Shown: positions 5,438-59,104 of the stretch, one piece after another | Layout of the letters: each line of letters begins with the position of its first letter | Numbering within the stretch: the stretch's first letter is position 1 | DNA from: Polaromonas sp. | Lineage (GTDB): Bacteria; Pseudomonadota; Gammaproteobacteria; Burkholderiales; Burkholderiaceae_C | Assembly: GCA_025363315.1 (NCBI GenBank) | Contig: JANYED010000167.1 | Span: forward strand, 8,348-72,347 | DNA length: 64,000 bases | Direction: 5' to 3' | Program-made: the position numbers and the translations under genes | The notes under the pieces: generated by a model | Seen by the model: only the letters and a program-made list of their open reading frames with translations | Database searches by the model: none | What the model was told of the DNA's origin: nothing

Positions 5438-5491
5438 GCTATTGAATCAGGAGCTGCTCGCGCCCGAATTTATTGGGCTTGGGCCCTAAAA
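5438..5491 (+). repeat. 54-bp dispersed motif, copy 1 (intergenic)
   Basis: gctat tgaatca ggagc tgct cgcgc ccg aatttat tgggct tgggccctaaaa. Confidence 0.9.
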
Positions 5492-5557
5492 CATACCTAA
5501 AGACGGCTGAACCGTCAAAAAAAATTCAAAATCAGCGCGTTTTGTAAAAAAGTAGCC

Positions 5558-5611
5558 AAAACCGCCTAAAACCTAATATTTACGGGCGCGAGCAGCTACC
5601 AAATTAATAGT
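5558..5611 (-). repeat. 54-bp motif, copy 2 (intergenic, inverted relative to copy 1)
   Basis: Reverse complement: actat taatttg gtagc tgct cgcgc ccg taatatt aggttt taggcggttttg. Confidence 0.85.
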
Positions 5612-5673
5612 CGGTGGCATATCATGACGACTGAAACTTTTCTGCGGTGCTGCAGTGCAAGCGCCGCCACACC

Positions 5674-6243
5674 ATGAACAAAGCCTTCACCAAAGAAACC
5701 GATTCAGACGACGACGACCTGGCTTTGCCGCCGCTGCTGCAGGGCGGTAAAAATTACATCACGCCTGCTGGCTATGCGCGTTTGCGGGGTGAATTGCTTA
5801 ACCTGATGGATGTTGAACGGCCCAAAATCGTCGATGTGGTGCACTGGGCGGCCAGCAACGGAGACCGGTCTGAAAACGGTGACTACCTGTACGGCAAAAA
5901 GCGCCTCCGCGAGATTGACCGGCGTATCCGGTTTTTAACCCAGCGGCTGGAAATTGCCGAAATCACCGATCCGTCGATTCACCACGGCAAAAACCAGGTG
6001 TTTTTTGGCTGCACGGTGACTTATGAGGATGATGTGGCCACTGAGCGCAGCGTCACGATTTTGGGCATTGACGAGGCGGACACGTTGGCCGGGCAGGTCA
6101 GCTGGGTGTCGCCGGTGGCGCGGGTGCTGCTCAAAGCGCGGGTCGGTGACGAAGTCAGTTTGCAAACGCCAGAAGGTGTGCGGGTTTTAAGCGTGATCAG
6201 CGTGAACTACCCCACGCCAGGCGCTACAACGCCAACTGATTAA
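5674..6243 (+). CDS. greB: Transcription elongation factor GreB
   Basis: MNKAFTKE start; WAASNGDRSENGDYLYGKKRLREIDRRIRFL; VSWVSPVARVLL. Confidence 0.95.
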   Translation: MNKAFTKETDSDDDDLALPPLLQGGKNYITPAGYARLRGELLNLMDVERPKIVDVVHWAASNGDRSENGDYLYGKKRLREIDRRIRFLTQRLEIAEITDPSIHHGKNQVFFGCTVTYEDDVATERSVTILGIDEADTLAGQVSWVSPVARVLLKARVGDEVSLQTPEGVRVLSVISVNYPTPGATTPTD

Positions 6244-6254
6244 ACGCCAGCTAA

Positions 6255-8905: not shown

Positions 8906-9526
8906 TTAAACAATATGCAAGGCTTTGAAGGTTTCAGCTCTGGCAATGCGCTGGGCTGCAAACTTCAGCCGCTGGGCGTGCACAATGGTTTTCAGGTCGA
9001 AAACGGCACGTTCAAACAACTCATTGATTATAACGAAGTCAAATTCCCGCGCCTGGGCCATCTCGGTGGCGGCGTTTTCAAGCCGCAGCTCAATGACGTC
9101 GGCAGCGTCTTCACCCCGCCGCTGCAGGCGCGAACGCAGCTCTTCCCAGCTGGGCGGCAAGATAAAAATCAGCACTGCGTTGGCAAATATCCGCTTGATG
9201 TTGATCGCGCCCTGAAAGTCGATTTCCAGAATCACATCCGCGCCATGGGCCACCCGCTCTTCAATCGCCTGGCGCGATGTGCCGTAGCGCTGGCCGTGCA
9301 CATGTGCCCATTCCAGGAACGAATTGCGCAGCACCATGGCGTCAAATTCGTCGGGCGAGATGAAAAAGTACTCGCGGCCATGCTTTTCCTGGCCGCGCGG
9401 CGCGCGTGTGGTGTGCGACACCGCCGGTTGCACCCGTGAGTCGATCTCCATCAGGGCCTTGACCAGGCTTGACTTGCCCGCGCCGCTGGGCGCTGCCACA
9501 ACAAATAAGTTACCAGGATAGTCCAT
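8906..9526 (-). CDS. gmk: Guanylate kinase
   Basis: [10 protein letters not shown]-loop, [31 protein letters not shown]. Confidence 0.97.
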
Positions 9527-9550
9527 ATCGTTTTGTTTTTGGTGGCGTGG

Positions 9551-12453: not shown

Positions 12454-12543
12454 ACTCCGTCCCCGAGCGAAGCGCTGTCTGTGTTACTTGAGCGCCAACT
12501 CCATGCCAACTGCCATAACCCTGACCCCACGAAAGTACACGCC

Positions 12544-13281
12544 ATGAGCACCTTTGAACGAAGCAGCGCGCGCGCCGCCAACGCCCTGCGCCCTGTGCGC
12601 ATCACCCGCCACTACACCGCGTATGCCGAGGGCTCGGTGCTGATTGAATTTGGTGGCACCAAGGTGCTTTGTACCGCGTCGGTTGAAGAAAAAGTGCCCG
12701 GCCACAAAAAAGGCAGCGGCAAAGGCTGGGTAACGGCTGAATACGGCATGCTGCCGCGCGCCACCCACACCAGATCCGACCGTGAAGCCGCCCGCGGCAA
12801 GCAAAGCGGCCGTACGCAGGAGATCCAGCGCCTGATTGGCCGATCACTGCGCACAGTGTTTGACTTGAAAAAGCTTGGCGAACGCACGATTTACCTTGAC
12901 TGCGACGTGATTCAGGCCGACGGCGGCACGCGCACCGCAGCGATTACCGGTGCGTTTGTGGCGGCGCAAGATGCGGTGAACAAACTCATTGCGGATGGAA
13001 AGCTCAAGGAAACACCGATCACCAGCCATGTGGCCGCTATTTCAGTAGGCATTGTTCAGGGCACGCCGCTGCTTGATTTGGAATATACCGAGGACTCCGC
13101 CTGCGACACCGACATGAATGTGGTGATGACCGGCGAAGGCAATTTTGTCGAAGTGCAGGGTACGGCTGAAGGCGCCGCTTTCACGCGCGCCGAGATGGAC
13201 GTGCTCTTGGGTCTGGCTGAAAAAGGCATCCGTGAGCTGGTCGGCATGCAAAAAAAGTCGTTGTCTTTTGCTATTAATTAA
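12544..13281 (+). CDS. rph: Ribonuclease PH
   Basis: Probable start [62 protein letters not shown]. Confidence 0.96.
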
Positions 13282-13323
13282 ATAGCTGCTTGCGCCCAAA
13301 TTCATTGGGCTGCAGCCGTATTT
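13270..13323 (+). repeat. 54-bp motif, copy 3; supplies the last codons and stop of rph and fills the rph-rdgB gap
   Basis: gctat taattaa atagc tgct tgcgc cca aattcat tgggct gcagccgtattt; rph TAA is at 13279-13281. Confidence 0.9.
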
Positions 13324-13327
13324 GACT

Positions 13328-13933
13328 ATGAAAATTATTTTAGCGTCGAACAACCAGGGCAAGCTGGCCGAGCTGCAAGCCATGTTTGAACCACTGGGTC
13401 TGCAGTTGCTTCGTCAAGCTGACTTGGGTATTGGTGAGGCTGACGAGCCGTTTCGCACCTTTGTTGAAAACGCTTTGGCCAAAGCCCGCCACGCAGCGCA
13501 CGCCAGCGGCTTGCCTGCTGTGGCTGACGACGCCGGTTTGTGTGTCGACGCCTTTGGCGGCTTGCCGGGTGTGGACACCGCTTTTTATGCGACACAGTTT
13601 GGCTACGCCAAAGGCGACGACAACAACGTCAAGGCGCTGTTGGAGCAGATGGCTGTGATTAACAACCGGCGCGCGGCACTGGTCAGCACGCTGGTGGCGG
13701 TGCGTTCGGTTGACGACCCCGAGCCGCTGATAGCGGTGGGCCGTGTGGTGGGTGAAATTACCCGCGAACCGTTGGGCAGCAATGGTTTTGGGTTTGACCC
13801 CGTGATGTTTATCCCCGAGTTTGGCAAAACTTTTGCGCAGCTGCCGGTCGATGTAAAAAACGCCAACAGCCATCGGGGAAAGGCCGCGCGGTTGATGAGC
13901 GCACTGATGCAAGAGCGCTGGTTGCAAGCGTAA
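13328..13933 (+). CDS. rdgB: RdgB/HAM1 non-canonical purine NTP pyrophosphatase
   Basis: LASNNQGKLAE, TFVENALAKAR, ADDAGL, GFGFDP, KNANSHRGKA. Confidence 0.95.
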   Translation: MKIILASNNQGKLAELQAMFEPLGLQLLRQADLGIGEADEPFRTFVENALAKARHAAHASGLPAVADDAGLCVDAFGGLPGVDTAFYATQFGYAKGDDNNVKALLEQMAVINNRRAALVSTLVAVRSVDDPEPLIAVGRVVGEITREPLGSNGFGFDPVMFIPEFGKTFAQLPVDVKNANSHRGKAARLMSALMQERWLQA

Positions 13934-15577: not shown

Positions 15578-15663
15578 GAGAACGACAGTTTAACAGCTTG
15601 GCTTAACGACACCCCATGCCTGAAGTTCGGCTGGTGATGGTCACTCACCTATTTTTAGGTGGG

Positions 15664-15717
15664 GTTTAAGCCGCTAGACCAATAGATACGGGCGCAAGCA
15701 GCTCATTAATTCATAGC
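15664..15717 (-). repeat. 54-bp motif, copy 4; supplies the stop of the hxlR-like gene
   Basis: Reverse complement: gctat gaattaa tgagc tgct tgcgc ccg tatctat tggtct agcggcttaaac. Confidence 0.9.
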
Positions 15718-16134
15718 GTCGGTTGCATTTTTCCGCGCAGTGAAAGCCGTGCGGGCGTCCAAAATGGTCTGACGGTGCTCGTCGGCCCATGTCCACACGC
15801 CGCAAAACGCTTCTCCCAGGCTGCGGCCCAGCGGCGTCAGTTCATATTCAACCCGGGGCGGCACCACGGGGAACACTTCTCGTAACACCAGCCCGTCAGC
15901 CTCCATCTGGCGCAAAGTTTTGGTCAGCATCTTCTGGCTTACGTCGCCTATCAGCTCGCCGAGCCGGGTAAAGCGCAGCTTGCCGTGCTCCTCTAGCGTC
16001 TCCAGGGCCAGCATGGTCCATTTGTCGGCTACGCGGCCAATGATGTCCCTGACCAGCGCCTACAGCTCGGGTTCAAGGGTATTAATCAGCGGCGGTTAGC
16101 CGGAAAGGGGATGTTGTGGACTGGGTTTGGGCAT
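15706..16134 (-). pseudogene. HxlR-family winged-helix regulator with two in-frame nonsense codons
   Basis: From ATG 16134: MPKPSPQHPLSG*PPLINTLEPEL*ALVRDIIGRVADKWTMLALE... (TAA at 16096-16098, TAG at 16060-16062). HxlR motifs ADKWT, VSQKMLTKTLRQME and PPRVEYELT are present. Confidence 0.8.
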
Positions 16135-17040: not shown

Positions 17041-17049
17041 ATAGGTAAT

Positions 17050-17103
17050 AAAAATGCCACCAGACCAATAAATACGGGTGCTAGCAGCTCCGCTATTAAT
17101 AGC
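17050..17103 (-). repeat. 54-bp motif, copy 5 (intergenic)
   Basis: Reverse complement: gctat taatagc ggagc tgct agcac ccg tatttat tggtct ggtggcattttt. Confidence 0.85.
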
Positions 17104-17163
17104 AGCTGCCGGGTTTTCGAAAATCTGTTGGCAGCAGAGCGCCGCGCCCCCTAACATTGCTGT

Positions 17164-25927: not shown

Positions 25928-25938
25928 TTTTCCCTATG

Positions 25939-25992
25939 ATTTATGCCTCTAGACCAATGGATACGGGCGCGAGCAGCTTGTTAATTGATAGC
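25939..25992 (-). repeat. 54-bp motif, copy 6 (intergenic, between mdtB and mdtC)
   Basis: Reverse complement: gctat caattaa caagc tgct cgcgc ccg tatccat tggtct agaggcataaat. Confidence 0.9.
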
Positions 25993-26081
25993 GTGTTTAG
26001 CTTTGCGGAGTTTGCCGGGATTCGCCCAGCATGCTTGGAAGGGGCAACATTTCTCAAACAAAAGCGCAATCTGAGAAATAA

Positions 26082-31938: not shown

Positions 31939-34311
31939 TTATTTTAATGTTCCTGTCGACGCGGTTTTAACACCCGCACCGCGTACTTCAATTTTTACTT
32001 CGTCCAGCACCTTGCCGTTGCTGTCGATCAGTTGCACCACATGCCGTCCTGGCCAGGGCAGCCACTGTGCCTGCGCGCCGCGTGCAACAACTTTGCCCTC
32101 CATCCGCCAGCGCAGGTTACGCCCCTCGGCCTTGAAGCTGACGCGTTGGGCTTTGGACGGAATGTCTGGGTCCAGCGCAATAACCGTACCGGCTGTGGGG
32201 GCGATGATCTTGGGTTCGATTTCAGCTGAAAAAGTACTTTTTAATAGGTCTTTTGAGTCTGTAGCCCAATCAACACGGGCGCGAGCAGCTCCTGAATCAG
32301 TAGCAAACAGATTTTGTTCAGTACCTTTGATGAACCACTCAGTGCGCGCTGCCTCCAGCCCATCAAACGCCACGCGGCTTTGCATCAGCCCGGGCGGTGG
32401 CGTGGGCGCGCGGCTGGGTTGGGTGCGGTGCAGGTGATTCATCACCGCCGCCCAGATCGGCGCTGCTCCGCTTGTGCCGCTCACGTCCCACATGGGTGCG
32501 CCGCTGGCGTTGCCTACCCACACGCCTACTGTGTAGCGCTGCGAATAGCCGACGGCCCAGTTGTCGCGCATGTCTTTGCTGGTGCCGGTTTTAACGGCAG
32601 TCCAAAAGCGGGTGGCCAGCACACTGTCAGTGCCAAAGGTGCGGGCACGCGCCAGTGGGTCGGCCAGGATGTCGCTGACGATAAATGCCGCGCGTGGGTC
32701 GATGGCGGATTCGGGTACAGCCCTCACCCCCGCCCACTCCCGTGCACGGGAGTGGGGGCCAATCGGGGAAGTCTGGCTCCCTTTCACGTACGCGGGAGTG
32801 GGCAGGGGTGAGGGTGAAGCGAATTTAACTTCCCCAACCTGCCCCCCATTGGCCAGCGTCCGATAAGCATTCGTCAAATTCAGCAGAGACACTTCAGAAC
32901 TGCCCAATGCCAGGCTATAGCCGTAATAGTCGCCGCTCTCTTTAAGCGGCAGTCCTGCGCCCTTGAGCTGCCTGGCAAACGCATCAGGCGACAACATGAC
33001 CAGCGTGCGCACCGCTGGCACATTCAGCGACGCCCCCAGCGCGGTGCGGGTGCTGACCATGCCCTTGAACTGACGGTCATAGTTTTGCGGAATGTACAGG
33101 CCGCTGGCAGTGGGGATTTGCGTGGACGAGTCTTCCAGCAATGATGCGGCAGTGATGCGCTGCTCAGCAATGGCCTGAGCGTACAAAAAGGGCTTGAGAG
33201 TTGAGCCCGGTTGGCGCAGCGCCGTCACGCCATCAACGTCAGCGGCTTTGCTGAGTTCATTGGACGAGCCAACCCAGGCCAGTACTTCGCCCGTGCCGTT
33301 GTCGAGCACCAGCACAGCACCGTCCTCCACATGGCGGCCGCGTAGCTCCCGTAGCTGCTGCTGCAAGGTTTGGACGGCGAAGCGTTGGAGTGGGGCACGC
33401 AGGGTGGACTGGATTGATTTTGCGGAGCCCTCACCCCGCAAGGGGCGAGGAAGGAATTCAGGAACGCCACTCTTGCCCCCTCTCCCGCTGACGGGAGAGG
33501 GTCGAGGTGAGGGGGCCTGCAAAGCCACCAGCCGCTGTGCCAAGTGCGGCGCAAACCCCTCGCTAGCATCAAACGCCTTGTGCTGCAAAGCACCCGATAC
33601 AAATAAGTCCAGCGCGTCGCAGTCGGCTCTGGATTGCAAAAGTTTTAAAACGCCACAAGACCGCTGGCTGACCTGCGCCGCCTTCGCATTTGGCCCCCGC
33701 ACCAGTGCCGCAGCCACCGCCGCCTCACGCTCATCCAGCCCATGCGCCGCCTTGCCAAACAGCGTGCGACTCAACGCGTCAACCCCCACCAACTCACCCC
33801 TGAATGGCACCAGATTCAAGTACGCTTCCAGAATCTGGTCCTTGCGCCAGCGTGCTTCAAGGACTTGGGTTGACACGGTTTGGCCGATTTTTTGACCCAC
33901 GCTTCGGCCATTGGCACCTGCACGCAAATCATCGTCCAGCAGGCCAGCCAGTTGCATGCTGATGGTCGATGCACCGCGTGTTTTGGTGTTCCACAAGTTG
34001 GCCCATGCAGCGCTTGACACCGCCCGCCAGTCCACGCCGCTGTGTTCATAAAAGCGTTTGTCTTCGGACAACACCAGCGCCGTGCGCAGGGCAGGCGACA
34101 CGTCAGCCAACGCCACCCACTGGCCGCGCCGCACGGTGCTGTCAGTGCGCAGGCGCTGAATGACTTCCCCGTCCCGTGCCAAAATCAGCGTGTCAGACGG
34201 CTTGTAGTCCTGTTTGACACTGTCAAATGATGCTGTAGCCCAACAAATACGGGCGCAGCTAGCTATTAAATAAATAGCGATACATCCGGCCCTGACAGCA
34301 TTAAGCGTCAC
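31939..34311 (-). CDS. pbpC: Penicillin-binding protein 1C
   Basis: EDKRFYEH, GASTISMQLA, SxxK (STLK), SLN and KTG motifs; 4-bp overlap with the A2M gene; contains four in-frame repeat-derived segments. Confidence 0.93.
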   Translation of the reverse strand: MTLNAVRAGCIAIYLIASCARICWATASFDSVKQDYKPSDTLILARDGEVIQRLRTDSTVRRGQWVALADVSPALRTALVLSEDKRFYEHSGVDWRAVSSAAWANLWNTKTRGASTISMQLAGLLDDDLRAGANGRSVGQKIGQTVSTQVLEARWRKDQILEAYLNLVPFRGELVGVDALSRTLFGKAAHGLDEREAAVAAALVRGPNAKAAQVSQRSCGVLKLLQSRADCDALDLFVSGALQHKAFDASEGFAPHLAQRLVALQAPSPRPSPVSGRGGKSGVPEFLPRPLRGEGSAKSIQSTLRAPLQRFAVQTLQQQLRELRGRHVEDGAVLVLDNGTGEVLAWVGSSNELSKAADVDGVTALRQPGSTLKPFLYAQAIAEQRITAASLLEDSSTQIPTASGLYIPQNYDRQFKGMVSTRTALGASLNVPAVRTLVMLSPDAFARQLKGAGLPLKESGDYYGYSLALGSSEVSLLNLTNAYRTLANGGQVGEVKFASPSPLPTPAYVKGSQTSPIGPHSRAREWAGVRAVPESAIDPRAAFIVSDILADPLARARTFGTDSVLATRFWTAVKTGTSKDMRDNWAVGYSQRYTVGVWVGNASGAPMWDVSGTSGAAPIWAAVMNHLHRTQPSRAPTPPPGLMQSRVAFDGLEAARTEWFIKGTEQNLFATDSGAARARVDWATDSKDLLKSTFSAEIEPKIIAPTAGTVIALDPDIPSKAQRVSFKAEGRNLRWRMEGKVVARGAQAQWLPWPGRHVVQLIDSNGKVLDEVKIEVRGAGVKTASTGTLK
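32251..32304 (-). repeat. 54-bp motif, copy 7 (inside pbpC, encodes ATDSGAARARVDWATDSK)
   Basis: Reverse complement: gctac tgattca ggagc tgct cgcgc ccg tgttgat tgggct acagactcaaaa. Confidence 0.92.
32721..32814. repeat. GC-rich REP-like inverted doublet inside pbpC
   Basis: Arms ccctcacccccgcccactcccg (32721-32742) and cgggagtgggcaggggtgaggg (32793-32814), 21/22 complementary; internal hairpin CCCACTCCCGTGCACGGGAGTGGG. Confidence 0.88.
33427..33516. repeat. Second GC-rich REP-like inverted doublet inside pbpC
   Basis: Outer arms CCCTCACC / GGTGAGGG; internal hairpins CCTCACCCC-GCAA-GGGGCGAGG and CCCTCTCCCG-CTGA-CGGGAGAGGG. Confidence 0.85.
34225..34278 (-). repeat. 54-bp motif, copy 8 (inside the pbpC N-terminal anchor, AIYLIASCARICWATASF)
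   Basis: Reverse complement: gctat ttattta atagc tagc tgcgc ccg tatttgt tgggct acagcatcattt. Confidence 0.88.
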
Positions 34312-37300: not shown

Positions 37301-40292
37301 TTTCACACAGCAGCAGCCCGCGTGCATCGCTTTTGCCGCTGCACACACTGCCTAAATCCTTGATTTCAGTCTTGTTGTCGTAGGTGTAAAAGCCGCCCAC
37401 CATGCGCTTGCGGCTGGTGGTGACAATACGCGCCACGGCCTGCACTGTCAGTGCAATATCTGTAGCAGCGAGCCCCTTTAAATCAAGTGCTAGCGCCTGA
37501 AACTTGATTTTCTGGCTGCTCGACACCCAGCCCTCCGTTTTGATGCCCGCCACTACGCCTGAAGGCCACAACGTGCTCAAGCTTCGAATCGTTTGCACCT
37601 CGCCATTCGGGTCGGCATAGGTGGCTTCCAGCAGCAGCTCTTGCGGTTGTTTGGCAGTAGGTACATCAGAAATGGTGACTTTACCTGCACCGTTTTTGTT
37701 CAGCGTTAACGGCAACTTGTCAGCTATAACGCGCTGGTCTTGTGATGCCGTGGTTTCCTCTTCGCCTTGTGCATTGCCGGTTTGCTTGCCGCGCGGCGGG
37801 CTAAAGCTGAACTCTTCGTAGTCGCTATAGCTTAAATACTTGCCGCGCACCAGGGCTGACACACGCACGGGCAAGTTCACCGCGCCGCCGCCCGCTACAT
37901 AGTTGATTTGCACGTCGGCGGGTACGGACTTGACATTGACCAGCGCCTTTTTGTTGGTGGGCGTAACGCGCCCTTCAAGCACCGGCAAGCGAAACTCTTC
38001 CACTCTGAATTGGCCCGTGCTGATGTTGCCGTTGCTGCTATCGCTATCGCTGTCGCTGTCGTTATTTTTTTGCCTGTCGAGGTAGACCTGATAGATGCCA
38101 AGTTTGGCAGCGGGCGGTATGGCAAATGTGTTCTCGGCGCTTTGGCCACCCGTTGCGGTTTTGCGCCAATTGAGGGCTTGTTTGTACTGCTGTCCGCTAC
38201 CCACGTGGGTGACGATCAGCGTTTCGGGTAACACGCTGGCCAGGCCAAAACCTTTGCTGGTCTCGGTGCGCAAAATATGCTTCATCGACACGGTTTCGCC
38301 CGCTTTGAACAGCGTGCGGTCAAAAATGGTGTGGGCACGTTCGTCGGGCACGGGTTCGCGGCTGGTCGGCACGTTAAAACGCCACGGCTCGATGCCTTTG
38401 TGCCAATTGCTCCAGGTGAAGGCCAAATCATCTGCAGCCCGAGCGCTTATGAAATAAGCGCCATTGGTTTCTGACTCGCCGTCTGAATCACTGCCTGAAC
38501 TATTTCTGTAGCACTGCCCGGGGTCGGGCGACAAGCCGGTGAAGTTGGCAATACCTTGCGCGTTGGTAGTGGCCTTGGCAAGCTGCTTGCCGTTGCAGTC
38601 AGACACCGCCACTTGGGCGTTGGCAACCACCGTACCTTTGTCCAATGTGGTCACCCAGGCCATTGCGTTTTCTCGCCCCAGCTTGAAGTGCACCGCGAGG
38701 TTGGTGACCAGTGCGGATGTACGAACGTACATTGTCCTGGACGCGCCGTAGCGCTCGTCGAGCAACGAGCCTCCTAGTTTTTGCGACGCAATTTCCACCA
38801 CGTGAAAGCCAGGTGAAAGTGGAATACCCACCACCTCAAATGGACGTGGATCCGCGGCGACGGGTTTGGGTAAATCTAAGGTGGTAACTCCCGGCTGACT
38901 TTGCAACAGCGAGACGGTGCGCGATTGAACAGTGTCTTTGTCTCGCTTTTCGAGTACCTTCGGCAATACGCCTTTGACATCACGAATGGCCATGCGGCGC
39001 GGCACTTCATAGCTGTCGTAGCGCTGCACTTTGCGAAACCACGCAATGATTTCTGCATCCGTCTTGGGTTGTAGCCCGTTGACTTTTCCTGGGGTCAGGC
39101 CCTTGATCGGCAAGGCCGCTTCAACGTTGCGCAGCGTCACGGGCAGCAGCGCCATGTAACCAGGCTCGCCGTTATTTTCCGCGTACCGCTCCACAATGCC
39201 AAACGGTGCGGCCGCAAATTTTGCCAGCGGCGGCATCGCGCCGGTGGCTACCCTCAAAGGAAAGCTGTCAGCATTGTTCAGCGGCCGGCCTGATGCGTCT
39301 TTGAAGTCTTTGGGCAGCTCCAGCACATAGGGCGTGGATTCACTGAACAGCGGCTTGAAGGTGATGCTGTTCACCACGTCCGCTGCATCGCCTTCATTTT
39401 CAAACGTCGGCTTAAGCTTGTCTTTGCCGCCCGTCAAACGAATCGCCTCGGCCAGCTTGCGCGGCACCGGTGCGTTGAAGTTCAGGCTCATCGGCCGGAT
39501 GGGCAGACAGGCCGACTGGGCGTTTTCACGCTCGCAGTTGAAGCTGGCAGCAAACGGCTCGCGCACCTTGAAGTTGTAGCGCTTTTCAATGCTGTTGGGT
39601 ATACCGCTTGGCGTGCTGACACCTTTGCCGTAGACCAGTTGCATTTTGCTGGCGGGCGTGAGGCGGCGATTGCAGGTGAGGGCGGCAAACTTCAATGGCT
39701 CGGCGGCTGCGGCTTTGTCCAGCCCCTGCGACTTTAAAAGCGCATCACGCTCTTTGCCCTCAATCAGCTTGACGGGCACTCGCTCGCCCAGGCCCTCAAC
39801 GCTGCACCACACATTGTCTTGAATGCTTTTGAGCGTCGCCGCGCCATTGAGCTGAAGTAAAAAATACTGTTCTTCATCAATCCGCTCGCCACCAGAGGGT
39901 TGCAGGCTTTGAATAAACGGCCCGCTAGTATTGAATTTATAGCTACTTGCGCCCGTCAACAGGGCGCCAGAGGGCGATTTAAGCCCAGCACGCATCTGCA
40001 CATTGCAGTTCACACCCGGCGGTAAGTCGTTTTCAAACTCGAACGCCCATTCGCGGTCGCTGATCCAGCGGCCACTGCCTTTGCTGGCTTGTGCATCGCT
40101 GCAACTTAGCGTCAAAGGCGCAGGCGCTTTGGGGTCGCCAAAATTGACGGCGCTGTCGTCAAACTTGGCCACCACCTGGCGTATGCGCGCCACCTCGCCT
40201 TGCGGACTGAGGCTGGTGATTTGCAGCGCCTGCGTGGGAAGTGCTGCGGCCGCCATACCGGCGGCGATGAGTCTCAAAGTGATGGATAGCAA
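34308..40292 (-). CDS. Bacterial alpha-2-macroglobulin (YfhM-like)
   Basis: About 1990 aa; thioester motif YPFACLEQ; paired with pbpC. GAGGAG RBS 6 nt before TTG at 40292 suggests this start rather than 40340. Confidence 0.92.
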   Translation of the reverse strand: MLSITLRLIAAGMAAAALPTQALQITSLSPQGEVARIRQVVAKFDDSAVNFGDPKAPAPLTLSCSDAQASKGSGRWISDREWAFEFENDLPPGVNCNVQMRAGLKSPSGALLTGASSYKFNTSGPFIQSLQPSGGERIDEEQYFLLQLNGAATLKSIQDNVWCSVEGLGERVPVKLIEGKERDALLKSQGLDKAAAAEPLKFAALTCNRRLTPASKMQLVYGKGVSTPSGIPNSIEKRYNFKVREPFAASFNCERENAQSACLPIRPMSLNFNAPVPRKLAEAIRLTGGKDKLKPTFENEGDAADVVNSITFKPLFSESTPYVLELPKDFKDASGRPLNNADSFPLRVATGAMPPLAKFAAAPFGIVERYAENNGEPGYMALLPVTLRNVEAALPIKGLTPGKVNGLQPKTDAEIIAWFRKVQRYDSYEVPRRMAIRDVKGVLPKVLEKRDKDTVQSRTVSLLQSQPGVTTLDLPKPVAADPRPFEVVGIPLSPGFHVVEIASQKLGGSLLDERYGASRTMYVRTSALVTNLAVHFKLGRENAMAWVTTLDKGTVVANAQVAVSDCNGKQLAKATTNAQGIANFTGLSPDPGQCYRNSSGSDSDGESETNGAYFISARAADDLAFTWSNWHKGIEPWRFNVPTSREPVPDERAHTIFDRTLFKAGETVSMKHILRTETSKGFGLASVLPETLIVTHVGSGQQYKQALNWRKTATGGQSAENTFAIPPAAKLGIYQVYLDRQKNNDSDSDSDSSNGNISTGQFRVEEFRLPVLEGRVTPTNKKALVNVKSVPADVQINYVAGGGAVNLPVRVSALVRGKYLSYSDYEEFSFSPPRGKQTGNAQGEEETTASQDQRVIADKLPLTLNKNGAGKVTISDVPTAKQPQELLLEATYADPNGEVQTIRSLSTLWPSGVVAGIKTEGWVSSSQKIKFQALALDLKGLAATDIALTVQAVARIVTTSRKRMVGGFYTYDNKTEIKDLGSVCSGKSDARGLLLCETKLGEAGEVELIVTAKDKDGNTIQAASSVYVTKQGELWFGGENHDRMDVLPEKKSYQPGDVAKFQVRMPFRFATALVAVEREGIIDTQVVQLNGQDPTISLKIKEGWGPNVYVSVLALRGRLREVPWYSFFTWGFKAPKEWWTSFWYEGREYVAPTALVDLSKPAFRLGLAEIRVGTKAHQLDVSVKPDKESYAVRSQAKVTIQVKLPSGQPAANAEVALAAVDQALLELMPNSSWGLLDAMLQRRAWGVETSTAQMEIIGRRHYGRKAVAAGGGGGRSNTRELLDTLLLWNPRVQLDANGQAVVTVPLNDALTTFKIVAVADAATGLFGTGQTSIKATQDLQIISGLPPLVREDDQFRAQITLRNTTKAAMKVEVAPRATLLELKPQTVDIPAGEAREVAWTVTAPGQLGFTRQEAILWEIEAKDTISGVRDGLKARQRIIPAVPLTVQQATLIQVDGSFSLDVNPPADALPGRGGLKMSLQPKLADGMDGVRDWFANYPFACLEQKTSKSVGLRDGKLWQSVVGQIPGYLDSDGLANYFPPRDGDAARGSDALTAYLLAATHEAASINPAFALPDDVRAPMERGLIAFVEGRIQREFWSPRKDLDVRKLAALEALARYGKAQGRMLGSITIAPNQWPTNAVIDWLSILKRVSDVPKREERIAEANQVLKSRLSYQGTKLIFSTEKDDYWWWLMVNGDVNTARLMLAVMDDAAWKDDIGRLANGFIGRQQKGAWLTTTANLWGGLALDKFSARFEATPVAGVTKAALTAAAAQVDWAKVDRVKTTDAGGAPNQTTMFGAPASPGNLRNNTMFLTWAKAASAAKDSLNVTHTGTGRPWLTLQSLAAVQLKEPFNAGYQIKKTMDPVEQAVKGIYTRGDVVRITLEVNASADMTWVAITDPIPGGATILGSGLGRDSEIATKGEKKSGSGWPAFEERSFEAFRSYYEYLPKGVVKMQYTMRLNNVGDFALPPSRVEAMYAPEMFGEAPNARVKVGGVK
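39927..39980 (+). repeat. 54-bp motif, copy 9 (antisense inside A2M, KSPSGALLTGASSYKFNT)
   Basis: agtat tgaattt atagc tact tgcgc ccg tcaacag ggcgcc agagggcgattt. Confidence 0.82.
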
Positions 40293-43788: not shown

Positions 43789-44529
43789 ATGAAACTGAGA
43801 GTGCTGCTGGTGGATGACGAAGCGCTGGCCAGAGCCCGGCTGCGCGTTCTGCTGGCCGACTGCCATGCCCCCGCAGCCGCCGTGGTGGCAGAAGCCGGTG
43901 ATGCCGCGCAGGCCATGGTCGCCATCCGGCAGCATGCGCTCGATGTGGTGTTGCTTGACGTGCGCATGCCCGGCATCAGTGGCGTGCAACTGGCGCAGGC
44001 GATTGCCGGGCTGCCCCAGCCACCGGCCGTGGTGTTCGTCACCGCGCATGCAGAGCACGCGGTGCAGGCCTTTGAAGTCGAAGCGGTGGATTACCTGACC
44101 AAACCGGTGCGGTTGGAACGATTGCAGCAAGCGCTACAAAAAGTGGAGCGGCTAGCCAATATTAACGCTGGGCTGCAGCCAGATTTATCAGGTGAAGTGC
44201 TGATCATTCAAGACCGCGGCCGCACCGAGCGCGTGCCACTGGCCGAGGTCTTGTACCTCAAAGCCGAGCTCAAATACATCACCGTGCGGACCGCCAGGCA
44301 GAGCTACATTCTGGATGGTGCGTTAAATGAGCTGGAAGAAAAGTACGCCGCCCACTTCATGCGCGTCCACCGCAATGCTTTGATTGCGCGCCGCGCGGTG
44401 CGGGCACTCGTCAAGCATTTTGACGATGAAGAAGGTGAAGGCTGGGCGGTACGACTCAGCGGCATTGACGAGCTTCTGGCGGTGTCGCGTCGCCAGCTCA
44501 GCGCAGTGCGCGAAGCCATTGCCAGCTGA
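43789..44529 (+). CDS. LytTR-family response regulator (AlgR-like)
   Basis: LVDDE, LLDVRMPG, FVTAH, DYLTKP receiver; LytTR domain with AELKY and RVHRNALI. Confidence 0.92.
   Translation: MKLRVLLVDDEALARARLRVLLADCHAPAAAVVAEAGDAAQAMVAIRQHALDVVLLDVRMPGISGVQLAQAIAGLPQPPAVVFVTAHAEHAVQAFEVEAVDYLTKPVRLERLQQALQKVERLANINAGLQPDLSGEVLIIQDRGRTERVPLAEVLYLKAELKYITVRTARQSYILDGALNELEEKYAAHFMRVHRNALIARRAVRALVKHFDDEEGEGWAVRLSGIDELLAVSRRQLSAVREAIAS
44133..44186 (+). repeat. 54-bp motif, copy 10 (degenerate, in the REC-LytTR linker)
   Basis: gctac aaaaagt ggagc ggct agcca ata ttaacgc tgggct gcagccagattt; aligns ungapped to copy 15. Confidence 0.72.
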
Positions 44530-46050: not shown

Positions 46051-46065
46051 ACCGCGTCGTCAAGT

Positions 46066-46119
46066 GCTCCTGAATCAGGAGCTGCTTGTACCCGTCTATG
46101 TTGGTCTAGCGGCACTTTA
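46066..46119 (+). repeat. 54-bp motif, copy 11 (intergenic)
   Basis: gctcc tgaatca ggagc tgct tgtac ccg tctatgt tggtct agcggcacttta. Confidence 0.85.
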
Positions 46120-46169
46120 TATCCTTGCGCCTTGTCGCTGCCTTGCATGATCCGGCTCGGGCAGCACGT

Positions 46170-46459: not shown

Positions 46460-46513
46460 GATATGAATTCAATAGCAGCACGCGCTGCTATCCATTGGCT
46501 CACAGCATTATGT
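46460..46513 (+). repeat. 54-bp motif, copy 12 (degenerate, intergenic)
   Basis: gatat gaattca atagc agca cgcgc tgc tatccat tggctc acagcattatgt. Confidence 0.7.
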
Positions 46514-46527: not shown

Positions 46528-47811
46528 TCAGCATAACTGCTGCGAAATCACGGTTTTTTCTATCAGCCGGTCATCGCCGAGCGTGATGAGTGCAAAGAGC
46601 AGCTCATCGAGGTTGTTTGCGCGGGCGGCTTTGCGGGCCAGCAGGGGTGTGGCCTGCGGGTTGACGATGACAAAGTCAGCCTCGCAGCCCGGTTGCAGGT
46701 TGCCGACCACGCCCGCCAAGCCCATGGCCTGGGCGGCACCTGCCGTGTGTTGCCACCACAGCTGCTGCGGCTTAATCGACAGGCCGGGTTTGGTGGCCCC
46801 TTCCCGGCCCACGTAATACGCGGCCAACATGGTGTGAAACGGGCTGAACGACGTGCCGCCGCCCACGTCGCTGGCCAGGCCGTAAGAAAAACCCGCCTGG
46901 TCGGCCGCGCGATAGTCAAAATAGCCGCTGCCCAAAAAGAGGTTGCTGGTCGGGCTGACCGCGGCAGCTGTGCCCGTGCTTCGCATCAAGGCGCGGTCGT
47001 CATCGTCAATATGAATGCAGTGGGCGTACACGGCTTTGGGCCGCAGCAGACCAAATTGTTCGTACACGCTGAGGTAGCTGCGAGCCTTCGGGTACAGGCG
47101 TTTGACCCAGGCGATTTCATCCTTGTTCTCCGCCACGTGGGACTGAATCCACACGTCTGGATACTTGGCTGCCAGCACGCCCGCGCCCTGCAATTGCGCC
47201 GCGCTGCTGGTCGGTACAAAGCGTGGGGTGATCGCATAACCCAGCCGGTCAATGCCGTGCCATTTGTTGATCAGGGCTTCAGTATCGACGAGACTCTGCT
47301 TTGTTTCATCACGCAGGCCGTCGGGGGCGTTTTGGTCCATCAGTACCTTGCCAGCCACCATGCGCAAACTTTGCTTTCGCGCCTCGCCCAGCAGTGCGTC
47401 AACAGATTGTCGGTGTGATGTGGCAAAAGTGAGCGCGGTTGTCACGCCATTGCGAAGCAGTTCTGCTATGAAGAACGTAGCTGCTTGCGCACAGTATTCG
47501 GGCGCTGCAAAGCGCTTTTCTTCTGGAAAGGTGTGGTTCTTCAGCCACGGCAGCAAGCCGTCAGCGGGCAAGCCCATCACGTCTGTCTGCGGGAAGTGGA
47601 TGTGCATGTCTACAAAACCAGGGGCGATGATGCGGCCGGGCAGGTGTTCAACCGGCAAGTCGGGGTAGCTCGAACGCAAGCTTTGAAAGCTGCCAATGGC
47701 CTGGACGACCTGGCGACCTTGTGTGTTGGGGCCTGCGACGAGCAGCCCGTCTTGTTCAAAAACGGCGTCGCGGCCCTTGAAGTGCAGCAGCGAGGCGCGG
47801 TAGGCTTTCAT
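46528..47811 (-). CDS. guaD: Guanine deaminase
   Basis: PGFVDMHIHFPQ, WLKNHTFPEE, AITPRF, QSHVAEN, AHCIH, SNLFLGSG, ASDVGGGTS. Confidence 0.93.
   Translation of the reverse strand: MKAYRASLLHFKGRDAVFEQDGLLVAGPNTQGRQVVQAIGSFQSLRSSYPDLPVEHLPGRIIAPGFVDMHIHFPQTDVMGLPADGLLPWLKNHTFPEEKRFAAPEYCAQAATFFIAELLRNGVTTALTFATSHRQSVDALLGEARKQSLRMVAGKVLMDQNAPDGLRDETKQSLVDTEALINKWHGIDRLGYAITPRFVPTSSAAQLQGAGVLAAKYPDVWIQSHVAENKDEIAWVKRLYPKARSYLSVYEQFGLLRPKAVYAHCIHIDDDDRALMRSTGTAAAVSPTSNLFLGSGYFDYRAADQAGFSYGLASDVGGGTSFSPFHTMLAAYYVGREGATKPGLSIKPQQLWWQHTAGAAQAMGLAGVVGNLQPGCEADFVIVNPQATPLLARKAARANNLDELLFALITLGDDRLIEKTVISQQLC
47465..47518 (+). repeat. 54-bp motif, copy 13 (antisense inside guaD, KRFAAPEYCAQAATFFIA)
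   Basis: gctat gaagaac gtagc tgct tgcgc aca gtattcg ggcgct gcaaagcgcttt. Confidence 0.82.
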
Positions 47812-47822
47812 CGTTCAAGGCA

Positions 47823-48197: not shown

Positions 48198-48225
48198 CTG
48201 AAAGCCTTCAGCAATTGCCTGTCAT

Positions 48226-48861: not shown

Positions 48862-48893
48862 AACAAGCTCCATGCCGCAATAGGCAGAGCGGT

Positions 48894-48924: not shown

Positions 48925-48986
48925 GCGCCGAGAAATTGAATTTGAGTTGCTTGTCGGGCGGCAAGCGACTCGATAAGTTTAAAGCC

Positions 48987-50027: not shown

Positions 50028-50044
50028 TTGAACTCCAACAAAGA

Positions 50045-50068
50045 AAAAAGGCCGCAACAAAGCGGCCT
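50045..50068 (-). terminator. Intrinsic terminator after the BMP lipoprotein gene
   Basis: Minus strand AAGGCCGC-TTTGTT-GCGGCCTT followed by TTTT. Confidence 0.75.
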
Positions 50069-50088
50069 TGGCTAGACAAACCGGAATC

Positions 50089-51258: not shown

Positions 51259-51463
51259 GTCGTGTCGCTTTCGTTGTAAAAAGTAGGAAAAAAGAAAACA
51301 ATAATGTTGACGCAAGGCTCCATTTAATTGCGCTGGATACCAGGCTAGCTGCCAGTACCGCATCATATAAAAAACTCGATGCTATGTATATAAATATGGG
51401 CGCTCTTGCCGGGTAAGCTTTCAGTGATAAACGGAATACCTCTGCAACTATACATAAGCAAAC

Positions 51464-52882: not shown

Positions 52883-52888
52883 GGCTCT

Positions 52889-54890: not shown

Positions 54891-54894
<4 letters not shown>
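53809..54894 (-). CDS. Nucleoside/purine ABC transporter permease
   Basis: WNIGAEGQ, NASEILVSLML, GYGFAAIIVAFVGRLHP. Confidence 0.9.
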
Positions 54895-56495
<1,601 letters not shown>

Positions 56496-56523
56496 GTTGG
56501 TGAGTTCGTGTTTTCAGGGTATG

Positions 56524-56577
56524 TTTTAAGGCTGCAGCACAATATATTCGGGCGCGAGCAGCTATGATTTTCGTAGC
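56524..56577 (-). repeat. 54-bp motif, copy 14; supplies the last codons and stop of the LysR gene
   Basis: Reverse complement: gctac gaaaatc atagc tgct cgcgc ccg aatatat tgtgct gcagccttaaaa; TAG at 56562-56564. Confidence 0.9.
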
Positions 56578-57503
56578 GTTGTGGCGACCGATTTGATGCG
56601 TTCACGCAGCCACTTGGACGCATTCGACGCATGCGTTCGCTCGTGCCACAGCTGGTAGTACATCATGCGCGGAAACTCAATCGGGCTGGGCAAAATACGC
56701 AGTGGCAGCAGTTTGGCAAAGCGCTCGCAGTACTGCCGCCCGGTTGTCATCACCAGCAAGCTGGACGCCACCATCGACGGCATCAGGCCAAAGTGCGGGC
56801 AACGCACTGTAATGTTGCGTTGCAAGCCCAGCGTGGCGAGGTGTTCGTCAATCACGCCTTTTGCGCCCGGGTGGGTGGCGGTCGGCGCAATGTGCTCGGC
56901 CTCCAGCCAGCGCGCCAGGTTTTTCGGGTCCCACTTGCGGCGCACCGCAGGGTGGTCTTTGGCGACCATGCACACCACCTCGTCGCCAAACAGGCGCCCC
57001 ATGTGCAGATCGTCCGGCAGGTCCGCCCAGTTGCCAATCACGATGTCGACCTGACCCTGCGCCAAATGGGTGCGGTAATCAGACTCGGCCGACAGCGACT
57101 GGATGTCTATGTGGCAGCGCGGCGCCTGCGCCTTGATTTGTGCCACCAATTGCGGCAAGAACAAAGGGTCGAGGTAGTCGCTAGCTGCTATTTTGAAGGT
57201 GACTTGCGCGGTGGCCACGTCAAAGCCCTTGGCGTCGCTGAAGAGCATGCCGGCTGACCGCAAAATATGAGCCGAAGGCTCCAGCATGCGCAGCCCGGCG
57301 TCGGTCGGTACCATGCCGCTGCCTGAGCGCACCAGAATCGGGTCGCCCGCCAGCTCGCGCAGGCGCTTAAGCGCAGCGCTGACGGCACTTTGGTACATGC
57401 CCAGGCGCATGGCGGCGCGCGACACACTGCGTTCGGTAAGCACGGTATTCAAGACCTTGATGAGATGAAAATCTATCTTGTCGAAAAGTGCCTGGTCTTT
57501 CAT
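56562..57503 (-). CDS. LysR-family transcriptional regulator
   Basis: N-terminal HTH (ERSVSRAAMRLGMYQSAVSAALKRLRE..GDPILVR), FKIAASDY; divergent from xdhA. Confidence 0.92.
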   Translation of the reverse strand: MKDQALFDKIDFHLIKVLNTVLTERSVSRAAMRLGMYQSAVSAALKRLRELAGDPILVRSGSGMVPTDAGLRMLEPSAHILRSAGMLFSDAKGFDVATAQVTFKIAASDYLDPLFLPQLVAQIKAQAPRCHIDIQSLSAESDYRTHLAQGQVDIVIGNWADLPDDLHMGRLFGDEVVCMVAKDHPAVRRKWDPKNLARWLEAEHIAPTATHPGAKGVIDEHLATLGLQRNITVRCPHFGLMPSMVASSLLVMTTGRQYCERFAKLLPLRILPSPIEFPRMMYYQLWHERTHASNASKWLRERIKSVATTLRKS

Positions 57504-57574
57504 ATGCCTTTGTTCATAGCCTCGATATGGTTTTCAGTATGCAAGTAGCGCGCCTGCTGTCTTACCCTGCCAGA

Positions 57575-59104
57575 ATGTCTAGCATGTCCAGTATGTCATT
57601 ACCCCCGGTTTCTTCTGTCAGCGTGCACTCGGTTCGCTTTTTAAAAGCGGGGCACATGGTGTCTCTGCGCAATGTACCACCCAGCCGCACGCTGCTGGAG
57701 GTGCTGCGCGAAGAGCTGGGCAGTACCGCCACCAAAGAAGGCTGCGGTGAGGGCGACTGCGGTGCCTGTACGGTGGTGTTGGGTGAAAAGGTCGACGGTA
57801 AGCTGATCTTCAAGGCCGTGAACAGCTGCATCCGGCTGGCGCATTCGGTCGACGGCATGGCGGTCTGGACGGCTGAGGACATCGCCTCAGTCGATGGTCA
57901 GCTTCACCCGGCTCAAGAGGCGATGGTGCAGTGCCATGGTTCGCAATGTGGCTTTTGCACGCCCGGCTTTGTGATGAGCATGTTTGCGATGTACCAAAAC
58001 CACGTCTGCAAAGGCCAGACCATCACGCGTGAGCTGGCTCAAACCGAGCTGTCTGGCAACCTGTGCCGCTGCACCGGATACAGGCCGATTCTGGACGCTG
58101 CTCAGCAGATGGCAGCTCTTCCCAAAGCGCTTGTGGATGAGCGCAGCGTGCTACAAAAATTAGAGCTGCTCGCGCCCGAATCTATTGGGCTTGAGGCTGA
58201 TTTGGCAGGTAAAATCGGGTATCAGTCGCCGGTTTCACTGTCTGCGCTGCTGCAAATGCGCTCCCAAAACCCTGGCGCGCAAATTGTGGCGGGCACCACC
58301 GATGTGGGGCTGTGGGTGACCAAGCAGCACCTCCAGTTTGACCAGATCATTGACGTGACGCGGGCAGCCGAGTTGCGGCGGATTGAAGACTATCCGCACC
58401 ATATCGCCATAGGCGCGGCCGTCACGCTGAACGATGCCTATGTCGCGTTGGTAAAAGGCAGGCCGCAGCTGCAGGGCTTTGCAGCGAGGTTTGCGGGCCT
58501 GTCGGTGCGCAATTCGGGCACGCTGGGGGGCAATGTGGCTGGCGGCTCGCCGATTGGCGATTCCATGCCGCTGCTGATTGCGTTGGGCGCCAGCGTGGTG
58601 CTGATGAGCCAAAAGAACGGAAAAACAAGCAGCCGTGAGTTTGCACTGGAGGACTTTTACACCGGCTACAAGCAAAACCAACTGGCCGCCGATGAAGTGC
58701 TGGCCTGGATCAAAGTGCCCAAGCCCACGCCGCATGAGTTCTTGCGCATCTACAAAATCTCCAAACGCTTTGACGACGATATCTCGGCCGTTTGCCTGGG
58801 GCTGAATTTGCAGATCGACAACGGCCACGTGGTGAAAGCGTCCATTGGCATTGGCGGTGTTGCGGCCACGCCGGTACGCGCTATTAAAACAGAAGCTGCT
58901 TGCGCCCGTAAATCATGGTCTAAAGCCACTGTGAACTATGCGATGACTGTCCTCAGGGGTGAGTTTTCACCGATCTCTGACATGCGTGCGTCCAGCGCCT
59001 ACCGCACGCAAGTGTTGGGTAACCTGCTCGAGCGCTTCTGGCATGAAAGCCAGGGCTTGCAGCACATCAACCTGCAGTCCTTCACCCTTGAGGCGGCTGT
59101 ATGA
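57575..59104 (+). CDS. xdhA: Xanthine dehydrogenase small subunit (2Fe-2S/FAD)
   Basis: KEGCGEGDCGACTV, QCGFCTPG, GNLCRCTGY, AGTTDVG, ISKRFDDDIS, SDMRAS; start at 57575, 57584 or 57593. Confidence 0.95.
   Translation: MSSMSSMSLPPVSSVSVHSVRFLKAGHMVSLRNVPPSRTLLEVLREELGSTATKEGCGEGDCGACTVVLGEKVDGKLIFKAVNSCIRLAHSVDGMAVWTAEDIASVDGQLHPAQEAMVQCHGSQCGFCTPGFVMSMFAMYQNHVCKGQTITRELAQTELSGNLCRCTGYRPILDAAQQMAALPKALVDERSVLQKLELLAPESIGLEADLAGKIGYQSPVSLSALLQMRSQNPGAQIVAGTTDVGLWVTKQHLQFDQIIDVTRAAELRRIEDYPHHIAIGAAVTLNDAYVALVKGRPQLQGFAARFAGLSVRNSGTLGGNVAGGSPIGDSMPLLIALGASVVLMSQKNGKTSSREFALEDFYTGYKQNQLAADEVLAWIKVPKPTPHEFLRIYKISKRFDDDISAVCLGLNLQIDNGHVVKASIGIGGVAATPVRAIKTEAACARKSWSKATVNYAMTVLRGEFSPISDMRASSAYRTQVLGNLLERFWHESQGLQHINLQSFTLEAAV
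58150..58203 (+). repeat. 54-bp motif, copy 15 (inside the xdhA Fe-S/FAD linker, LQKLELLAPESIGLEADL)
   Basis: gctac aaaaatt agagc tgct cgcgc ccg aatctat tgggct tgaggctgattt. Confidence 0.92.
58880..58933 (+). repeat. 54-bp motif, copy 16 (inside the xdhA C-terminal domain, AIKTEAACARKSWSKATV)
   Basis: gctat taaaaca gaagc tgct tgcgc ccg taaatca tggtct aaagccactgtg. Confidence 0.9.

Follow-up and report, generated by a model that had tools for sequence, protein, structure and literature searches.

The stretch of DNA analysed here, 64,000 nucleotides of Polaromonas sp. contig JANYED010000167.1 (positions 8,348 to 72,347; hereafter the window, GC content 57.6%), comprises the right end of an integrative island of 5.4 kb and, outside it, 58.6 kb of native DNA, to which the densities given below refer. 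Copies of a long bipartite DNA motif are dispersed over the native part, between genes as well as within them (Table 1), and two genes, xdhA (57488-59104) and pbpC (31939-34311, minus strand), hold two strong copies each. Our main finding, drawn from the alignment of these genes with homologues that lack the motif, is a new one: the length-neutral replacement in place of conserved coding sequence by a long composite motif. The related loci compared with the window are referred to by numbers (L058, L121, L166 and so on).

Table 1. Motif copies in the window, with profile scores and position relative to genes.
Copy	Strand	Class	Score (bits)	E-value	Location and remarks
5436..5498	+	strong, intergenic	60.3	6e-18	left half of inverted pair
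5552..5611	-	strong, intergenic	46.8	1e-13	right half of inverted pair
13269..13329	+	strong	56.5		between convergent genes
15658..15719	-	strong	57.9		between tRNA-Ser(TGA) and HxlR-type regulator gene, overlapping the 3' end of the latter
17043..17104	-	strong	52.0		few nt past the stop of the SDR gene (16255-17040), opposed to transcription
25934..25994	-	strong	57.3		154-bp spacer between two AcrB-family genes, opposed to transcription
32247..32305	-	strong	56.5		inside pbpC, sense frame 0, encodes ATDSGAARARVDWATDSK
34219..34280	-	strong	49.4		inside pbpC, sense frame 0, encodes AIYLIASCARICWATASF
39929..39980	+	weak, degenerate	20.3	2e-5	antisense in alpha-2-macroglobulin gene
44131..44191	+	weak	12.3	6e-3	receiver/LytTR linker of response-regulator gene (Pfam)
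46064..46124	+	strong	47.0		14 nt past AI-2E transporter gene, between convergent genes
46462..46513	+	not accepted as copy	6.6	0.36	
47464..47518	+	weak	16.5	3e-4	antisense in amidohydrolase gene
56519..56578	-	strong	52.5		ABC-ATPase/LysR spacer
58148..58209	+	strong	57.0		inside xdhA, sense frame 1, encodes VLQKLELLAPESIGLEADL
58878..58938	+	strong	51.1		inside xdhA CO_deh_flav_C domain, sense frame 0, encodes AIKTEAACARKSWSKATV

The motif had been described in an initial annotation as a 54-bp element of fixed length in 16 copies, and its layout is indeed present at all 16 listed positions in a single ungapped register. A profile hidden Markov model built from 12 window copies (nhmmer; strong copies defined by E<=1e-13) supports 12 of them as strong, five on the plus and seven on the minus strand, and a further three, those listed at 39927, 47465 and 44133, as weak and degenerate; the one listed at 46460 is without support. 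Two of the weak copies recur at orthologous sites in related loci, the first at L166 3082-3116 and L167 3693-3750 and the second at L123 1598-1625, and the third shares its reading frame with the xdhA linker copy. A comparison with shuffled sequence gave a clear result, with 13 matches to the core AGCTGCTYGCGCCCG at no more than two mismatches against 1.3 expected, a number reached by none of 100 shuffles. The commonest 12-mer of the window is the motif core. The density of about one copy per 5 kb is similar in L121, L123, L166 and L167, and the distances between copies are irregular, ranging from 0.1 to 11.8 kb. Dozens more copies are present in the same metagenome populations, as evidenced by loose contig ends and by a depth of 10-20 times the baseline in copy-holding bins; note that the analysis of single-nucleotide polymorphisms from the metagenome runs is confounded by this multi-copy mapping.

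From 58 distinct copies in the window and the related loci we derived the unit consensus GCTAttaAtt.ag.AGCTGCTTGCGCCCGTATttATTGGgCTA.AGgC.tA.tt.A....t.AAa. Its left edge is sharp, at GCTA, and at 5438 dozens of metagenome contigs match from this point on and diverge before it; many match only 5438-5479 of the first copy. The right edge fades in an A-rich tail around position 66-68, so that the proposed fixed length of 54 bp does not hold. The conserved unit thus measures 55-68 bp and consists of a 15-bp core and further conserved blocks, with about 35 informative positions. Blocks rich in GC take turns with A/T tracts, within which AA and TT can replace each other, and the spacers, said to vary freely, are in fact constrained to be A/T-rich. 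In the proposed palindrome GCTAY-N7-RDAGC the outer GCT and AGC are genuine, whereas the inner positions pair only as often as column composition predicts, and the second inverted pair, GCCC-N-GGGC, shows no covariation and pairs at the same compositional expectation. The sole invariant pairing arms are CT-N11-AG, found in 50 of 50 copies. Beyond these arms nothing was found in favour of the suggested recombinase core or T-N11-A geometry; the attachment-site remnant of the nearby integrase is of a different kind, a 3' fragment resembling tmRNA/tRNA, and one copy per 5 kb fits poorly with a regulator box such as the LysR T-N11-A site.

The history of the coding copies can be read most clearly in the C-terminal domain of XdhA. 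In a 43-row codon alignment of xdhA loci, motif-less relatives (58-69% identity, GC content 63-72%) encode RAxQTEAALxGQPWT with GC-rich codons in a stretch of identical length, where the low-GC Polaromonas clade reads CGC GCT ATT AAA ACA GAA GCT GCT TGC GCC CGT/CAT ... TGG, and the copy aligns without gaps to XdhA of R. capsulatus, the structure of which is solved (1jro_A). As judged from this alignment, the AT-rich motif took the place of ancestral codons that were rich in GC, and neither insertion nor deletion was involved. The copy leaves the consensus where the protein demands it, with GAA for a functional glutamate and TGG for a functional tryptophan, and a conserved glycine has become arginine, histidine or tyrosine, or has stayed glycine, among the aligned loci. 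When positions are ranked with a position weight matrix from which the xdhA copies had been left out, the motif-less outgroup site comes among the top 0.1-5% of the gene that holds it in nearly every relative, and the place at which the motif grew was therefore pre-adapted.

The remaining three strong coding copies give the same picture. In XdhA, where a copy encodes VLQKLELLAPESIGLEADL in the linker that joins the Fe-S and FAD domains, the site is present in 120 of 120 orthologues, and the linker of motif-less relatives is comparable in length. The copy at 32247 in pbpC lies in the linker between the transpeptidase and the C-terminal domain (Pfam) and encodes INSGAARARIDWATG, as compared to VNSAAGD--ARPAKA in distant homologues, with an orthologous copy at L166 12009. 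The one at 34219 encodes an N-terminal hydrophobic segment, AIFLIAACARICWATASF, probably a signal peptide, and has orthologous counterparts at L166 10036, L167 10031 and L168 10033. At both copies the pbpC orthologues are equal in length, with a gap of at most two amino acids. By alignment, then, none of the four strong coding copies is an insertion, as stretches of the same length exist in homologues without the motif. No orthologous intergenic site polymorphic for the motif was found, and the origin in place rests on the coding copies.

The codons chosen within the copies further argue that the constraint acts on DNA and not on the peptide. Among pairs of sequences encoding the same amino acid within the Polaromonas-like clade, the fraction of identical codons is 0.79-0.91 in the motif as compared to 0.67 in the rest of xdhA, and reaches 0.89-0.91 over the first ten codons of each xdhA copy; as the clade set holds some near-duplicate sequences, these ratios are approximate. 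The GC content at third codon positions (GC3) is 0.24-0.51 in motif codons and 0.68 elsewhere in the gene. The xdhA linker keeps the rare codons CTA, CAA, AAA and TTA even in relatives at 66% GC, and in distant relatives with a GC3 of 0.84 the linker copy still has one of 0.57. The initial annotation had placed the constraint on DNA or RNA rather than peptide; the AT-rich, synonymously conserved codons bear out the DNA part, and the part concerning RNA structure did not survive the folding tests described below.

With respect to genes, the copies are not randomly placed. Intergenic sequence makes up only about 7% of the native DNA, yet eight of the 12 strong copies lie mostly within it (binomial P = 2e-7), and the motif is therefore not indifferent to gene boundaries, contrary to what had been supposed; the other four lie wholly inside genes, two each in xdhA and pbpC. 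For 27 spacer copies both neighbouring genes could be called, and nearly all of these copies are located 0-35 bp from a gene 3' end, in nine convergent, 14 tandem and four divergent spacers; positions past gene ends and between convergent genes are over-represented. In tandem spacers, seven copies run along the direction of transcription and seven against it. Several copies provide the stop codon of the upstream gene, either as the TAG of ATAGCT or as a TAA in an A/T spacer: the one at 13269 covers the end of the RNase PH gene (12481-13281; gene map, Pfam) over 12 nt and provides its TAA, and at 56519 the left arm forms the last four codons of the LysR gene, with the TAG within ATAGCT as its stop. 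Of the six reading frames of the consensus only two lack stop codons, both sense, and the four strong coding copies use just these two. The earlier count of four intragenic frames thus narrows to two sense frames for strong copies, the antisense ones being degenerate. Scans for promoters and terminators revealed no systematic coincidence with the copies. A sigma-54 site was considered as well and rejected by eye, the spacing from GG to TTGC being 8 bases instead of 10.

Neither a fold nor the marks of transposition could be detected. RNAalifold on 38 copies returned no base pairs and no consensus structure, the top pairs by mutual information are adjacent AA/TT tracts, and in covariation tests both palindromes of the initial annotation and a third helix paired at the level expected from composition; the check for covariation in support of an RNA structure, suggested at the outset, was thus negative throughout. 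The z-score of single-strand DNA folding averages about -0.7, with three of the 12 copies below -2 (-3.6, -4.1 and -2.3) and nine folding no better than shuffled sequence. At Rfam gathering thresholds only tRNA-Ser passes in the whole window, and at E<=1 the region 5300-5700 yields a weak tmRNA 3' fragment and nothing on the motif copies. At most one of 42 copies has a flanking direct repeat of 4 bp or more at any offset that could represent a target-site duplication (TSD), a signal of terminal inverted repeats (TIR) is absent from the copies, and none of the 40 window open reading frames scanned against Pfam matched a transposase family; no gene for a REP-associated tyrosine transposase (RAYT) was seen among them. 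The core pattern has no exact match in 2.9 million viral contigs. In these analyses the element behaves as a linear DNA motif, neither a fold nor a transposon, which agrees with the earlier view of a recognition site rather than a recently copied MITE (miniature inverted-repeat transposable element).

The expectation of a system wider than this window was confirmed. In a scan of genome contigs with the 15-mer core, full-length copies were found in many metagenome-assembled genomes of Polaromonas and in a single one of Burkholderiales only, the remainder being mostly chance matches in unrelated high-GC genomes. The source names of PbpC and XdhA homologues likewise point to Polaromonas. Public runs carrying window DNA are DNA assemblies of sediment, rock, aquatic or unlabelled metagenomes, or in one case of unknown type, and no RNA run was found among them. 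Sites that recur across species are the ABC/LysR spacer, the AI-2E/amidohydrolase spacer (L123 584-641), pbpC, the alpha-2-macroglobulin gene and the weak amidohydrolase copy, and the ABC/LysR spacer and the xdhA linker are maintained across genera. The former is kept in L121, L124, L126, L131 and L145 and takes a dialect form in L135, L147, L149, L151, L154 and L159. In GC-rich relatives the left half and the core are retained (GCTACGAAAAGAATAGCTGCTTG...), and the right half is a different, often palindromic sequence, such as GCGCTTG-N5-CAAGCGC or AGCGCTT-N7-AAGCGCT. In strain SP1, a GC-rich Polaromonas, 22 kb contain only a single weak copy.

A full-text literature search for the core sequence yielded nothing relevant, and the dialects of the Neisseria DNA uptake sequence (DUS) were looked for and are absent. 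The belief that the motif had never been described nevertheless needs a small correction, as a survey of spaced motifs from 2017 lists ATAGCT(N)22CAAAAG, uncharacterised, with 125 copies in P. naphthalenivorans CJ2, of which 101 are intergenic, 18 in genes and six overlapping gene ends (PMC5217627). By its register this is the present element, matching unit positions 12-17 and 40-45, and copies L058 6015 and L127 6313 carry CAAAAG at the corresponding position. The survey also contains GCTTAT(N)5AAGCG, counted in 114 copies for Acidovorax ebreus (PMC5217627), and this motif fits the right-half palindrome of the GC-rich dialect in L146. It reports that its motifs favour spacers close to genes and convergent gene pairs, and presents them only as 'potential novel motifs', without the full unit, origin, comparison or mechanism (PMC5217627). 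The beta-proteobacterial repeat element (BRE) was considered as the identity of the motif and rejected, being a different family (PMC3110155).

Several observations concern rearrangements at or near copies. In L095 a 225-bp unit occurs twice, at 6476-6700 and 7613-7837, 1.1 kb apart and with 77% identity; in it, two motif copies in inverted orientation enclose about 100 bp of central sequence, which has no further occurrence in the data examined. In L127 and L130, at about 8990-9135, a MITE of some 143 bp with the TIRs AGGGAyCCTCTGCAyAACTC is lodged in a motif copy immediately past xdhB, at its CTAG, and is missing from the otherwise near-identical L157 (about 8975-8985). The motif can therefore serve as a landing site for other mobile DNA. 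The alpha-2-macroglobulin and pbpC genes overlap in the window (about 34300); between them L166 holds an NTP_transf_8 gene (9052-9999) and L167 a PrlF/PIN toxin-antitoxin pair (9369-10001), at an insertion point that adjoins the N-terminal copy of pbpC. Some metagenome contigs join 5476, in the first copy, to 5581, in the inverted second copy, or to 9688. As the overlaps are only 21-30 nt, these joints are probably artefacts of the assembly graph passing through a repeat, and an inversion or deletion between copies may also lie behind them.

Of the surroundings, window positions 1-5419 represent the right end of the integrative island, of lower GC (0.50-0.52), whose genes are all encoded by the minus strand: those for the metal transporters Nramp (205-1482), GDT1 (1515-2093) and NicO (2285-3445) and that for a tyrosine integrase (3858-5207). 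What remains of its attachment site resembles the 3' end of a tmRNA/tRNA and lies at 5300-5366 (...GGGTTCAATTCCTGCCAGCCGCACCA; Rfam tmRNA E 0.13), beyond which a hairpin with a T-run is found at 5383-5419. The inverted pair 5436/5552 lies just outside the island, upstream of a greA/greB-like gene. The Nramp gene of the island has a functional duplicate elsewhere in the window, at 62743-63861. The sole RNA gene called in the window, tRNA-Ser(TGA) at 15488-15577 on the minus strand, has a motif copy 80 nt upstream on the same strand. Finally, 46528-61563 is a cluster for purine salvage and catabolism that is syntenic across the compared Polaromonas loci and contains two amidohydrolases, PTPS, a radical-SAM protein, adenosine deaminase, a Bmp/ABC nucleoside transporter, a LysR regulator and xdhAB.

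The replacement without insertion or deletion, the constraint at the level of DNA, the lack of a hairpin, TSD and TIR, the orthologous persistence and the dialects are features that we consider established by these sequence comparisons. The motif would then be a recognition sequence read by a protein on double-stranded DNA, native to the chromosomes of Polaromonas and with variant dialects in related Comamonadaceae. It would not transpose; new copies would form in situ by base substitution, or possibly by short-patch replacement, with length unchanged, wherever the sequence already resembles the motif and tolerates it, in spacers past genes, in interdomain linkers, in the N-terminal hydrophobic segment of PbpC and in one stretch of a conserved domain, and once formed would be kept at the DNA level over long periods. 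As for the force, we infer biased fixation as it occurs with the uptake signal sequences (USS) of Pasteurellaceae and the DUS of Neisseriaceae: better-matching DNA would be favoured in the transfer between cells of the lineage, most plausibly during uptake or recombination in natural transformation, and matches would thereby accumulate wherever protein and regulatory constraints permit. Such an uptake-like drive is the most likely of the mechanisms considered, although we would grant it somewhat less than an even chance. It is favoured because the origin in place, the constraint on DNA, the preference for frames and positions, the neutrality of orientation, the enrichment past genes, the orthologous persistence and the dialects all match uptake sequences. 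Of the three options raised initially, the uptake-like drive and a protein-binding site survive, and a REP/RAYT-like repeat (REP, repetitive extragenic palindrome) does not, in view of the missing hairpin covariation, the copies in genes and the lack of a transposase match among the 40 window open reading frames scanned. That the motif serves the environmental Comamonadaceae, as a third and independent lineage of naturally transformable bacteria, for a signal of uptake or of preferred recombination, one unusually long and bipartite, with dialects at the level of genera and a drive that rewrites conserved protein segments, is a more specific and somewhat less likely proposition, which we put forward tentatively.

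A number of points weigh against an uptake-like drive. Selection on each individual site would yield the same comparative picture. We know of no demonstration of natural transformation in Polaromonas, and a literature search found no paper on competence or uptake sequences in Comamonadaceae. The motif, with its 55-68 bp and about 35 informative positions, is four to five times sparser than known uptake signals. No half-built intermediates were seen at the C-terminal site of xdhA, where replacement of a single patch and many substitutions are therefore indistinguishable, and scores in the window are bimodal, with copies at 46-60 bits, then values of at most 20 and few in between. The motif is unmatched in 72,556 plasmids and 50,697 phage records, collections that may lack low-GC Polaromonas replicons. 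The 5.4-kb island is free of copies, as had been observed initially, and with only 1.1 expected there this is not significant (P(0) = 0.33). With 67% of the strong copies, the intergenic share also exceeds the 35-66% of three uptake sequences (PMC2817400).

The strongest competitor shares the origin in place and replaces the drive by ordinary selection: each copy would be a working site for a protein of chromosome organisation or DNA topology that is needed where transcription units end, and we consider this possible, if improbable on balance. Candidates that might fill the role, at the same low level of confidence, are a nucleoid-associated protein, gyrase, topoisomerase IV or a transcription roadblock; binding of gyrase and topoisomerase IV has been proposed for the REP and bacterial interspersed mosaic elements (BIME) of E. 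coli. The position of copies within about 35 bp of gene 3' ends in either orientation, their excess between convergent genes, the alternation of GC blocks with interchangeable AA/TT tracts, which suggests bendability over base identity, the maintenance of the ABC/LysR spacer and xdhA linker sites across genera and a length sufficient for a multi-contact footprint all suit such a protein. Against this, some 800-1000 sites would each need selection able to override the glycine of XdhA and to rewrite the N-terminus of PbpC, growth at the best pre-existing match of a gene suggests that number or density matters and not the particular place, the spacing is irregular, and no such protein is known. 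If selection does act, the motif marks an abundant, previously unknown DNA-binding system at gene ends; if an uptake or recombination bias does, sequence-specific DNA exchange takes place in a large and ecologically important family in which none is known.

The other explanations fare considerably worse. A mobile repeat of the REP/REPIN or MITE type, spread by a transposase such as RAYT and homogenised by gene conversion, with the coding copies as old in-frame insertions, would account for a dispersed, mainly extragenic family near gene 3' ends, for the inverted pair 5436/5552 and the inverted doublet found twice in L095, and for the good palindrome that forms the right half in GC-rich relatives; such repeats also attract mobile DNA, as does one copy in L127/L130. 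For the coding copies this origin is contradicted because all four strong ones lie in stretches equal in length to motif-less homologues, and the lack of TSD, TIR or compensatory change in any arm, the folding of most copies no better than shuffles, the lack of a transposase match among the 40 open reading frames scanned and the persistence of sites across genera, unlike the fast turnover of REP, make it improbable overall. An RNA element in transcripts, be it a terminator, a stabiliser of 3' untranslated regions or a small RNA, has in its favour the copies just past stop codons and the three that fold well as single strands, and is contradicted because orientation is neutral (7:7 in tandem spacers) and structure absent, with no Rfam match on the copies, no RNAalifold consensus, no covariation and no coincidence with terminator- or promoter-like sites; we regard it as very improbable. 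A product of chance or of codon-usage composition, to which only the unremarkable peptides encoded in the two coding frames might point, is already refuted for practical purposes by E-values down to 6e-18 and the tenfold excess of core matches over shuffles, and most copies are non-coding, with motif codons that oppose the genomic GC3 bias.

Whichever force is at work, a unit of 55-68 bp accumulates in place and overrides residues both of a conserved enzyme domain and of the PbpC N-terminal segment, and its annotation as a MITE or REP should be avoided. Its local effect is a bias in codon and amino-acid composition, and it is usable as a lineage marker for the binning of Polaromonas DNA.

Among known systems, the uptake sequences come closest. 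Uptake signals have cores of 9-12 bp and measure about 30 bp overall, and in the USS a GC-rich core is flanked by A/T tracts. With the USS of Pasteurellaceae and the DUS of Neisseriaceae the present motif has in common its genome-wide occurrence in both orientations, in spacers and in genes, the origin in place, the frame bias and the dialects. It differs in being far longer, sparser and more intergenic; a short core of 9-12 bp suffices for recognition of USS and DUS, whereas here 55-68 bp are conserved. Comamonadaceae are moreover a family in which sequence-specific uptake is not known. Uptake sequences show a frame bias in genes, prefer poorly conserved positions, accumulate after transfer and are absent from genes without homologues in relatives (PMC2817400), and dialects of individual lineages are known in Neisseriaceae according to the title of PMC3630211. 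BRE has likewise been reported in Polaromonas and other Comamonadaceae, with some copies intragenic, but is about 90 bp long, has 69% GC and forms tandem arrays of variable copy number (PMC3110155).

REP and REPIN-RAYT systems resemble the motif as short dispersed repeats near gene 3' ends, with occasional inverted doublets and as hot spots of insertion. They are extragenic hairpins of rapid turnover with a linked RAYT gene, whereas the motif has no conserved hairpin, a third of its strong copies in coding sequence, persistence across genera and no RAYT seen among the 40 window open reading frames scanned. The Rickettsia palindromic elements and the Correia elements are also repeats translated within proteins, but these make the host protein longer and end in inverted repeats, whereas the present motif leaves protein length as it was and lacks TIR and TSD. 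HIP1 of cyanobacteria (GCGATCGC), Chi and the FtsK-orienting polar sequences (KOPS) spread by substitution in place and are kept at orthologous coding and non-coding sites, and in both respects the motif behaves as they do. To our knowledge, motifs that accumulate in place, namely uptake sequences, HIP1, Chi and KOPS, are known only as short words, and in place of the 8-mers of HIP1, Chi and KOPS the element of Polaromonas is a long, asymmetric and composite motif.

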